Source of the DNA: an uncultured Clostridia bacterium
Lineage (GTDB): Bacteria; Bacillota; Clostridia; Lachnospirales; Lachnospiraceae
NCBI GenBank assembly: GCA_947385945.1
Contig: CANDMY010000006.1
Coordinates: forward strand, 1 to 64,000
DNA: 64,000 bases
Reading direction: 5' to 3'
Numbering within the stretch: the stretch's first letter is position 1; each line of letters opens with the position of its first letter. The notes under the pieces are model-generated. The model saw only the letters and a list, made by a program, of their open reading frames with translations, had not been told where the DNA came from and made no database searches. Below, in pieces: positions 2,033 through 2,188 of the stretch. Both the position numbers and the translations under genes were made by a program.

Positions 2033-2188
2033 AAATCGGATATTCGCAATCCGCTTTGCTACTTGCTCATAACCTCATAGCTGCTATCGCAGCTTTTCAG
2101 TGGGAGTCTGCACTCCCACTGAAACAAGGAAGTCCCCCACTTTCGCCTTGGCGGCTTAGAAGCGGGGGACTTCCTTGATGAGGTTAAA
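2033..2188 (+). repeat. F3 structured repeat, copy 1. It is a multi-hairpin element: 'agctgctatcgcagct', 'cagtgggagtctgcactcccactg' and 'aagtccccc...gcgggggactt', closed by 'cctcat...atgaggt'.
   Basis: Repeated at 25668, 31874, 36547, 49564 and 49867. The internal palindromes are read directly. Confidence 0.8.

Follow-up and report, generated by a model that had tools for sequence, protein, structure and literature searches.

What are the strongly folded repeats, termed F3, that recur between the genes of a gut Lachnospiraceae, and how did they come to be there? The DNA studied is a stretch of 64,000 nt, hereafter the window, from an uncultured Clostridia bacterium of this family (contig CANDMY010000006.1). 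A preliminary description of its sequence had listed six intergenic F3 copies of about 155 nt, all in + orientation, each with three hairpins inside a closing helix, and had suggested that they form a composite, or are co-mobilised, with two neighbouring repeat families, F1 and F2. We find that F3 is one family of large modular repeat, abundant yet unannotated in gut Lachnospiraceae, and a new family of a known element type. It is probably a gene-less, non-autonomous single-strand transposon of the IS200/IS605 style, similar to the palindrome-associated transposable elements (PATEs), that is spreading among gut Lachnospiraceae of mouse and human.

Copies of F3 in the window and elsewhere

The six listed copies are real, as repeat finding, mutual alignment, and a covariance model all agree (Table 1). 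The model, built from 20 diverse family members and scanned over the whole window with filters off, recovered every one of them at 41-185 bits, and a six-way alignment joined the repeat-finding families that cover them (D5, D6, D10, D12, and D15). The hairpins quoted in the preliminary description are present in the sequence (agctgctatcgcagct, cagtgggagtctgcactcccactg, aagtccccc..gggggactt, and the closing cctcat/atgagg), and their retention in diverged copies was borne out by compensatory changes. The same scan, which had been proposed there as a check, also returned two short pieces in the opposite orientation. The uniform + orientation first described thus stands as a strong bias and was incomplete in that these two pieces had been missed.

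The family extends well beyond the window. A collection of species-representative genomes was searched for exact matches to a 24-mer of the loop in hairpin H3, which occurred in at least 120 eight-kb blocks; among the matches listed, these came from four mouse-gut genomes. About 80 of the listed blocks were from MGBC128194, a mouse-gut Lachnospiraceae to which the window is ~99% identical, ~31 were from MGBC136627, 8 were from a metagenome-assembled genome labelled Eubacteriaceae, and 1 was from an isolate. One mouse-gut genome contains at least 90 copies of the exact motif, and many of the matches sit at contig ends. A BLAST census of the listed blocks and the window yielded 210 F3 pieces: 62 of the full 165-nt form, 34 of a 119-nt form without hairpins H1 and H2, 26 consisting solely of the terminal A module, and a remainder of H3-only or other partial pieces, many at block edges. 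At least 14 identical 165-nt copies occupy different loci within one genome, and the short forms recur through deletions between short direct repeats. The elements are intergenic, with 3 of 201 pieces lying within long open reading frames (ORFs), and the genes that flank the window copies have functions unrelated to each other.

A pattern search of metagenomes based on the A module revealed a related subfamily on at least 120 contigs, most of the labelled ones being from human gut. The pattern also matched three viral contigs and, from human faeces, 14 records of uncultured phages; no F3 match was found in a plasmid collection. In the order of its modules the human-gut subfamily agrees with the mouse F3; its helix sequences are different.

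Ends, target, and an unoccupied site

Base profiles were compiled for 96 left and 157 right ends of the element. The boundaries were sharp: (A)GTCAAA... marked one end and ...GGTTAAA the opposite one, and the sequence outside these limits was unconserved. The TTAA that follows the element end was close to invariant: its first A occurred in 156 of 157 cases and the later positions in 135-136 of 157. The opposite flank was unconserved save for the terminal base. Direct repeats flanking the element were no commoner than in shuffled pairings (60 elements), so that no signal of target-site duplication was detected.

An unoccupied counterpart of the site of c1, the copy at 2029..2183, was sought by way of the nicotinate phosphoribosyltransferase encoded beside it, in contigs with close homologues of that enzyme. 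In two loci, L248 and L249, the phosphoribosyltransferase is 95% identical, the upstream gene is orthologous, and the site is unoccupied. In L248, from a related species, it reads ...TTTTTTTAA/CAAAAATGC, where the slash marks the junction; the wider sequence in L248 and L249 is ...AAGATTGATATTTTTTTAA/CAAAAATGCAAG, also given as ...AAGATTGATATTTTTTTAA/CAAAAATGCAAGTTTTACTATACT. The filled site in the window is AAATTGATAATTTTTTAA/CCTCATC...TTTGACT/CAAAAATGCAAG or, in the gene sense, ...AAATTGATAATTTTTTAA/CCTCATCAAGG...CCGATTTGACT/CAAAAATGCAAGTTTTGCTATACT. The empty site has a single TTAA, and the filled site is without a second copy. Based on this comparison, the insertion comprises positions 2029-2183, occurred without duplication, and used the TTAAA at 2184-2188 as a pre-existing target. 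The element limits of 2033-2188 given previously are accordingly revised: the true start is 2029, and the final five bases (TTAAA) are target DNA. Two other relatives are likewise without F3 at this site.

All strains with an identical flanking protein have copy c3; relatives in which this protein is 76% and 70% identical do not. Flank-to-flank BLAST among the collected loci uncovered no empty sites, and homologues of the GNAT gene beside c5 provided no usable one, their context being variable and their contigs very short. A difference between the window and locus L002 was considered as an insertion and rejected, as it is a strain-specific region. A further difference at c1 is a segment of ~105 nt (window 2189-2300) that contains a terminator-like hairpin, is flanked by A-rich repeats, AAAAT(A/T)GATA, and has no counterpart in L248; this segment may itself be a further small insertion.

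Orientation relative to genes and replication

The genes of the window are strongly co-oriented, the - strand carrying 39 of the 44 long ORFs. GC skew is very strong, and on the + strand every 4-kb bin but one gave a value of about -0.2 to -0.39. The shared + orientation is therefore fixed relative to genes and replication rather than arbitrary. Specifically, the orientation originally described as + is antisense to the genes and lies on the C-rich replication strand. The exceptional bin, 44-48 kb, has a skew near zero and several + strand genes, and may be a foreign island.

The same bias was observed beyond the window. Among copies bearing the A module in the mouse genomes, the originally described sense was on the C-rich strand in 87 cases vs 23; in a second, independent collection of metagenome and viral contigs, largely from human gut, the corresponding numbers were 99 vs 12. 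Between co-directed flanking genes, antisense placement of the element outnumbered sense placement by 67 to 25. Where the flanking genes ran in opposite directions, the bias still followed GC skew (40 vs 6), so the orientation tracks the replication strand better than it tracks the nearest genes. Expressed for the complementary strand, about 80-90% of copies have the strand reading 5'-TTTAA followed by the element on the G-rich strand, which we take to be the lagging-strand template.

Secondary structure and covariation

The predicted fold of c1 consists of a closing helix and three hairpins that form a four-way junction without unpaired junction bases, together with an extra hairpin at the end of the element. 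The + strand folds with a minimum free energy of -88 kcal/mol and the - strand with one of -93, as compared to averages of -43 to -45 for dinucleotide shuffles (z ~ -12). To describe the family, 20 diverse copies were aligned on the gene-sense strand. The RNAalifold consensus contains the closing helix P1, hairpin H3 with a tip hairpin of its own, the hairpins H2 and H1, and a two-helix A module. Fifteen of its 48 pairs have compensatory double changes, and 97.7% of the cells are paired. The covariation score was 0.33, vs 0.117 in shuffles, of which 0 of 500 reached the observed value, and vs at most 0.06 when the partners were slid; the aligned sequences form few subfamilies, such that the pair counts reflect few independent events. 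F3 is a genuine multi-hairpin intergenic family, as first proposed. Palindromic DNA elements keep their hairpins too, and the structure therefore does not decide between action as RNA and action as DNA. In one copy, at locus L080, the H3 loop is inverted with respect to all other copies, with TTCTAAGCCGCCAAGGCGAAA in place of TTTCGCCTTGGCGGCTTAGAA, a flip of the DNA itself inside the palindrome.

Proposed mode of transposition

F3 would move as single-stranded DNA by the 'peel-and-paste' route of the IS200/IS605 type, driven by a tyrosine HUH transposase encoded elsewhere. The active strand would be the reverse complement of the one first described. On it, the order is a TTTAA target motif, a long left-end hairpin (P1 and H3), a short linker, and a right-end hairpin (the A module) ending in ...TTTGACT; in the 165-nt form, two extra hairpins, H2 and H1, are inserted in the left-end hairpin. 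The element would insert 3' of TTTAA, and would do so on its own. In the outermost part of P1 the flanking TAA is paired with an internal TTA, and these pairs could act as a DNA guide that helps to define the cleavage site. The enzyme class, the single-stranded intermediate, and the TAA/TTA guide pairing are components that we infer. What argues for transposition of this kind is the high copy number, the identical dispersed copies, the exact ends without duplication, the unoccupied site, the invariant flanking TTAA, the strand bias that follows GC skew, the compensated hairpins, and the recurrent deletion derivatives.

Insertion sequences of the IS200/IS605 family and PATEs have a transposon-adjacent motif, no target duplication, hairpins at their ends, and a preference for the lagging-strand template (PMC10055086, PMC5027513, PMC6006769). 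Similar to the PATEs of Haloquadratum and Geobacillus, F3 is short, non-coding, and multi-copy, makes no target duplication, has hairpins near both ends, and lies with its strand preferentially on the presumed lagging-strand template. A fixed 5-nt motif also adjoins one end only: TTTAA in F3 as compared to TTTAT and TTCAT in the Geobacillus elements (PMC10055086). The main family of F3 has no true inverted ends, which fits this mechanism too. Among the differences from PATEs, no partner transposase with matching ends was found for F3 in the ~1.7 Mb of collected loci; its left end is a four-way junction with as many as three hairpins, as opposed to a single small, imperfect one, and its two end hairpins are not clearly alike.

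Several observations weigh against this mechanism. No transposase gene was found between F3-like ends in the ~1.7 Mb of collected loci. A motif scan of this DNA (1.74 Mb) detected two IS200-like tnpA genes, at L055 and L238, and the ends of both differ from those of F3, as do those of an IS200-like remnant in the window. Although hairpins occur at both ends of F3, they are not obviously alike, unlike those of IS608, and have in common only ATTGCGAA (human-gut type) or GCGAA. The A2 subfamily has subterminal inverted repeats. GC skew is only a proxy for the direction of replication, and the contigs are without a mapped origin. The evidence from empty sites comprises one clean case, in which the left side is complicated by the extra ~105-nt segment; as short direct repeats flank that segment, this side rests on a 15/16 match abutting the junction. 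The c3 site in relatives is not clean, since a spacer of ~140 nt differs there too. Finally, a few palindrome-only copies (TTTTAACC...GGTTAAAA) resemble classical inverted-repeat elements with a TTAA duplication.

Candidate partners were evaluated in the same loci. No pair of an A module and an F3 3' end was found to flank an ORF, and the ORFs beside A-only copies appeared housekeeping-like by eye, none being transposase-like, with no comparison to a domain library made. The IS605 element of L238 was rejected as it is unrelated to F3. An IS607-like gene of L247 was also rejected, its ends not being F3-like. This gene (446-1159) encodes an IS607-type serine recombinase-like protein with HTH_17 and Resolvase domains and lies upstream of the phosphoribosyltransferase gene of that relative.

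Alternative explanations

F3 could instead be mainly a functional structured RNA made from the gene-sense strand, such as a small RNA, a stabiliser in an untranslated region, or the guide scaffold of a TnpB-like nuclease. Its hairpins would be kept for RNA function, and it would be kin of Clostridiales-1 (RF01699), while still able to ride on a mobile element. We consider this unlikely, though by no means negligible. Clostridiales-1 is a very common four-stem structure of gut Clostridiales with many copies per genome in its alignment (Weinberg et al. 2010), and F3 is likewise a multi-copy, four-stemmed element of gut Clostridiales, ~165 nt long. When compared to the seed sequences of that study, the A module (UUAU GA GCAA G UAGC..GC GGA UUGC GA AUAU) resembles stem P3 (ACAU GA GCAA G AAGG..CC GGA UUGC GA AUG) in conserved bases, in the GA/GA and GUA/GGA internal loops, and in lying on the same gene-sense strand. 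Its pairing is supported by a compensatory change between subfamilies, GCAA/UUGC to GGAA/UUCC (pair 139-159). However, the Clostridiales-1 scores on the gene-sense strand, 17.6, 14.6, and 20.6 bits, are far under the cut-off of 48 and cover model positions 73-122 only, corresponding to the A module alone. The other three stems are unrelated, and the F3 stem stands outside the closing helix, at the end of the element, without a distal hairpin. Moreover, some human-gut variants break the Clostridiales-1-like pairing yet retain a simple end hairpin. A search of the whole window against Rfam at gathering thresholds returned nothing for F3, using speed filters that also missed a 66-bit TwoAYGGAY match; more permissive searches of small regions gave sub-threshold matches only, of which that to Clostridiales-1 was the most consistent lead and some were spurious microRNA matches to the long hairpin. 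Strand-specific signals are similarly divided. The consensus fold is more stable on the gene-sense strand than on the other (-53 vs -25 kcal/mol), and the mismatches within stems are mostly A.C on the originally described strand, that is, G.U on the gene-sense strand (151 vs 21 cells, dominated by about four inherited positions). The mutational bias of replication strands would yield this asymmetry anyway, and we therefore draw no strand assignment from it. The guide RNAs that PATEs are often reported to encode (PMC10055086), and the position of c3, so near a ribosome-binding site that it is either transcribed with the gene or drives it, are consistent with a role as RNA. On the other side, the near-identical copies, the deletion forms, and the flipped loop are dynamics of DNA, the flanking genes are without a common function, and F3 has no conserved promoter or terminator and no -10 enrichment near its terminal TTGACT. 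A more specific version, in which gene-sense F3 is a mobile structured RNA gene, acting as a guide scaffold for TnpB or IscB in trans or as a protein-binding RNA, with its GA-loop module being the Clostridiales-1 P3 unit, strikes us as quite unlikely. If true, Clostridiales-1, and perhaps the TwoAYGGAY-like and D3 repeats described below, would be mobile RNA elements colonising gut Lachnospiraceae. The module common to F3 and Clostridiales-1 may offer a testable account of this orphan 'small RNA' motif of 2010 as part of mobile-element ends or of guide RNAs.

The remaining alternatives concern how DNA of this kind moves. A classical inverted-repeat miniature transposon of the Correia, RUP, or ERIC kind would be moved by a DDE enzyme through cut-and-paste, with duplication of TTAA or TA. 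Palindrome-only forms (TTTTAACCTCATCAAGG...CCTTGATGAGGTTAAAA) with 23-bp inverted ends and TTAA on both sides, the subterminal inverted repeats of the A2 subfamily (TCAAAGGAA...TTCCTTGA), and modular insertion and deletion forms that recall BOX and ERIC are consistent with such an element. By contrast, the A-bearing majority has TTAA on one side only with unrelated sequence on the other, flanking direct repeats are not in excess, and the single TTAA of the empty site gained no second copy on filling. A strand bias of 80-90% is not what double-strand cut-and-paste predicts. As neither a duplication nor inverted-repeat ends in the main family were found, we regard a DDE element as very unlikely. 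Derivation from, or mobilization by, a group II intron or other retroelement that reverse-splices into single-stranded DNA at the fork would agree with the replication-strand bias and the lack of target duplication, and the gene-sense strand gave a match of 23.8 bits to group-II-D1D4-2 (RF01999; cut-off 36). This explanation is nevertheless exceedingly improbable: the boundaries of F3 are CCTCAT...TTGACT rather than GUGYG...AY, domains V and VI are lacking, the match vanishes in the human-gut variant, and hairpin-rich sequence yields spurious microRNA matches at similar E-values. Integron attC sites were also considered, as GGTTAAAC in some copies resembles GTTRRRY, and were rejected: left junctions do not start with TTRRRY, and F3 copies are scattered between housekeeping genes, whereas attC sites, with RYYYAAC and GTTRRRY cores at the foot of an imperfect palindrome, form cassette arrays near an integrase. 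Among other known repeats, REP and BIME sequences are thought to be moved by HUH tyrosine enzymes (RAYT). F3 is intergenic and palindromic as they are, and its lone A hairpins resemble single REPs, but it is much longer and modular, and no RAYT-like gene flanked by F3 was seen. Pneumococcal BOX, enterobacterial ERIC/IRU, and neisserial Correia elements are also intergenic and strongly folded, gain and lose modules, and, as F3 does, can create promoter elements by chance; none of them resembles F3 in sequence. Correia elements are bounded by true inverted ends and duplicate TA, and neither BOX nor ERIC is known to have a defined target motif or a replication-strand bias.

Association with neighbouring repeats

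The neighbouring family D1/D7 (268 nt) is TwoAYGGAY-like: its copy at 10771-10946 matched Rfam RF01731 at 66.5 bits (cut-off 43), while F3 itself gave no match to that model. TwoAYGGAY RNAs are reported to be multi-copy and repeat-flanked in Pseudomonas and to have elongated basal stems in Bacillota (bioRxiv 10.64898/2026.09.22.753630). In the mouse loci and the window, 15 TwoAYGGAY-like copies have F3 within 400 nt, and in 12 of these F3 is upstream in the same orientation, each of three other arrangements occurring once. Order and orientation are thus non-random, and the suggested link between F3 and F1/F2 is weakly supported. Such pairs account for only 12 of the 56 TwoAYGGAY-like copies and for about a tenth of the F3 copies with an A module.

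A composite that moves as a unit, with F3 as one part and the TwoAYGGAY-like and D3 repeats as others, is very improbable. In its favour, the predominant arrangement occurs in both orientations within the window, and repeats at fixed positions are reported beside the TwoAYGGAY RNAs of Pseudomonas as well (bioRxiv 10.64898/2026.09.22.753630). However, the majority of copies in either family are unpaired, the distance from F3 to the TwoAYGGAY core ranges from 33 to 216 nt with differing spacer sequences, and the second neighbour family, the D3 core, has no consistent arrangement (1 upstream, 3 downstream). In addition, c1 was inserted alone at its own site, and human-gut relatives of F3 have no TwoAYGGAY-like or D3 neighbours at the blastn level. 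The A-rich leaders of the TwoAYGGAY-like units offer TTAAA in the matching orientation, and we therefore infer that the association reflects a preference of F3 for insertion upstream of these repeats, rather than co-mobilisation or a fixed composite. In being placed non-randomly beside TwoAYGGAY-type elements, F3 resembles the Pseudomonas REP arrays; these are downstream at a fixed position, whereas F3 is upstream at a variable distance.

The TwoAYGGAY-like units of the window have long basal stems whose sequence differs by copy, and short tandem repeats resembling the 3' arm of the stem follow them, as at 50234-50325 (23 nt) and 15240-15342 (34 nt). The outer stems of the D3 core, of up to 24 bp, also vary by copy, and this repeat, like the TwoAYGGAY-like units, ends in AGCGTC(C/A). 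Tandem repeats of 35 nt follow the D3 core at 36857-36926. A permissive Rfam scan of 24833-26031, which holds two D3 copies, gave no match at E up to 1.

Effects on neighbouring genes and on annotation

In the region 1973-2030 of the window, the insertion of c1 brings TTGACT, a near-consensus -35 box, to a distance of 18 nt upstream of TATACT, which is the -10 box of the gene for nicotinate phosphoribosyltransferase; L248, where the site is unoccupied, has TTTTAA at this position. Creation of a hybrid promoter was considered as a general property of F3 and rejected, as -10 boxes were not enriched 16-18 nt from the terminal TTGACT (88 copies). Copy c3 lies between the T-tract terminator of an upstream DUF6465 gene and a 204-aa gene. 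It ends 5 nt before the ribosome-binding site of the latter, so transcription of this gene must either pass through F3 or start inside it. In this region (window 31840-32100), c3 replaces the ~140-nt spacer seen in related species (L254-L257), a spacer that appears to carry a promoter. As c1 and c3 exemplify, F3 can rewire promoters, and its effects on the host appear to be incidental.

The family has practical consequences as well. It breaks metagenome assemblies, as judged from the many copies at contig ends, and gene callers place spurious genes on it. It could also help to locate a single-strand transposase or TnpB system that is active in gut Lachnospiraceae.

Features of the window

Table 1. 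Coordinates of F3 copies and neighbouring repeats in the 64,000-nt window. Model spans and scores (bits, in parentheses) are from the F3 covariance model.
Feature	Position	Strand	Model span (bits)	Description
F3 copy c1	2029..2183	-	2031-2188 (181)	155-nt inserted segment, CCTCATCAAGG...CCGATTTGACT on the gene-sense (-) strand; boundaries from the unoccupied site in L248/L249; modules on + strand: A module 2030-2069, P1 5' arm 2070-2078, H1 2079-2094, H2 2095-2124, H3 2125-2173, P1 3' arm 2174-2183
c1 target motif	2184..2188	-		TTTAA on -, TTAAA on +; predates insertion; touches this element end only
F3 copy c2	25663..25764	-	25664-25769 (63)	Internally deleted: A module, P1, degenerate H1 and H2 5' arm, fused to 3' end; TTAAA at 25765-25769
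F3 copy c3	31871..32031	-	31879-32037 (140)	Full length, older 'A2' subfamily; TTAAA at 32032-32036
F3 copy c4	36550..36673	-	36551-36678 (76)	A module nearly all deleted; H1, degenerate H2, and H3 retained; TTAAA at 36674-36678
F3 copy c5	49550..49710	-	49552-49715 (185)	Main family, full length, 161 nt; TTAAA at 49711-49715; orthologue in MGBC128194 (locus L057)
F3 copy c6	49864..49939	-	49865-49945 (41)	Short form: A2-type A module, short P1 hairpin, 3' end; TTAAA at 49940-49944; ~90 nt upstream of a TwoAYGGAY-like unit
F3 short form, opposite orientation	11023..11071	+	11023-11069 (28.7)	TTTAA at 11023-11027; element 11028-11071, TCTATCAAGGAAGTAGCGGAGCGAATTCCGAATTTCCTTTGACT on +; in its own sense, upstream of the TwoAYGGAY RNA at 10771-10946
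Lone A-module hairpin, opposite orientation	44582..44614	+	44548-44612 (23.6)	GGTCAAAGCGGATTGCGAATATCCGATTTGACT
TwoAYGGAY-like units (seven)	227-407, 4862-5041, 10771-10953(-), 15011-15189, 28684-28866, 44279-44447(-), 50030-50212			
D3 core repeat (~92 nt)	25035-25161, 25801-25927, 36211-36337; inverted ~36751-36870			

Directly adjoining the lone, oppositely oriented A hairpin is a truncated remnant of an IS200-like tnpA on the - strand (44614-44870). The remnant comprises a left-end hairpin and ~30 codons of a Y1 transposase gene, is severed exactly at the hairpin, and has an intact relative at locus L055 (4493-4894). Other intergenic tandem repeats occur at 1-198 (66 nt, three copies) and at 36320-36529 (52-53 nt, four copies). 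Finally, the gene at 2304-4742 on the - strand encodes an 812-aa protein that matches the shoulder and repeat domains of the Major Vault Protein in Pfam (E = 1e-22), an uncommon finding in a bacterium.

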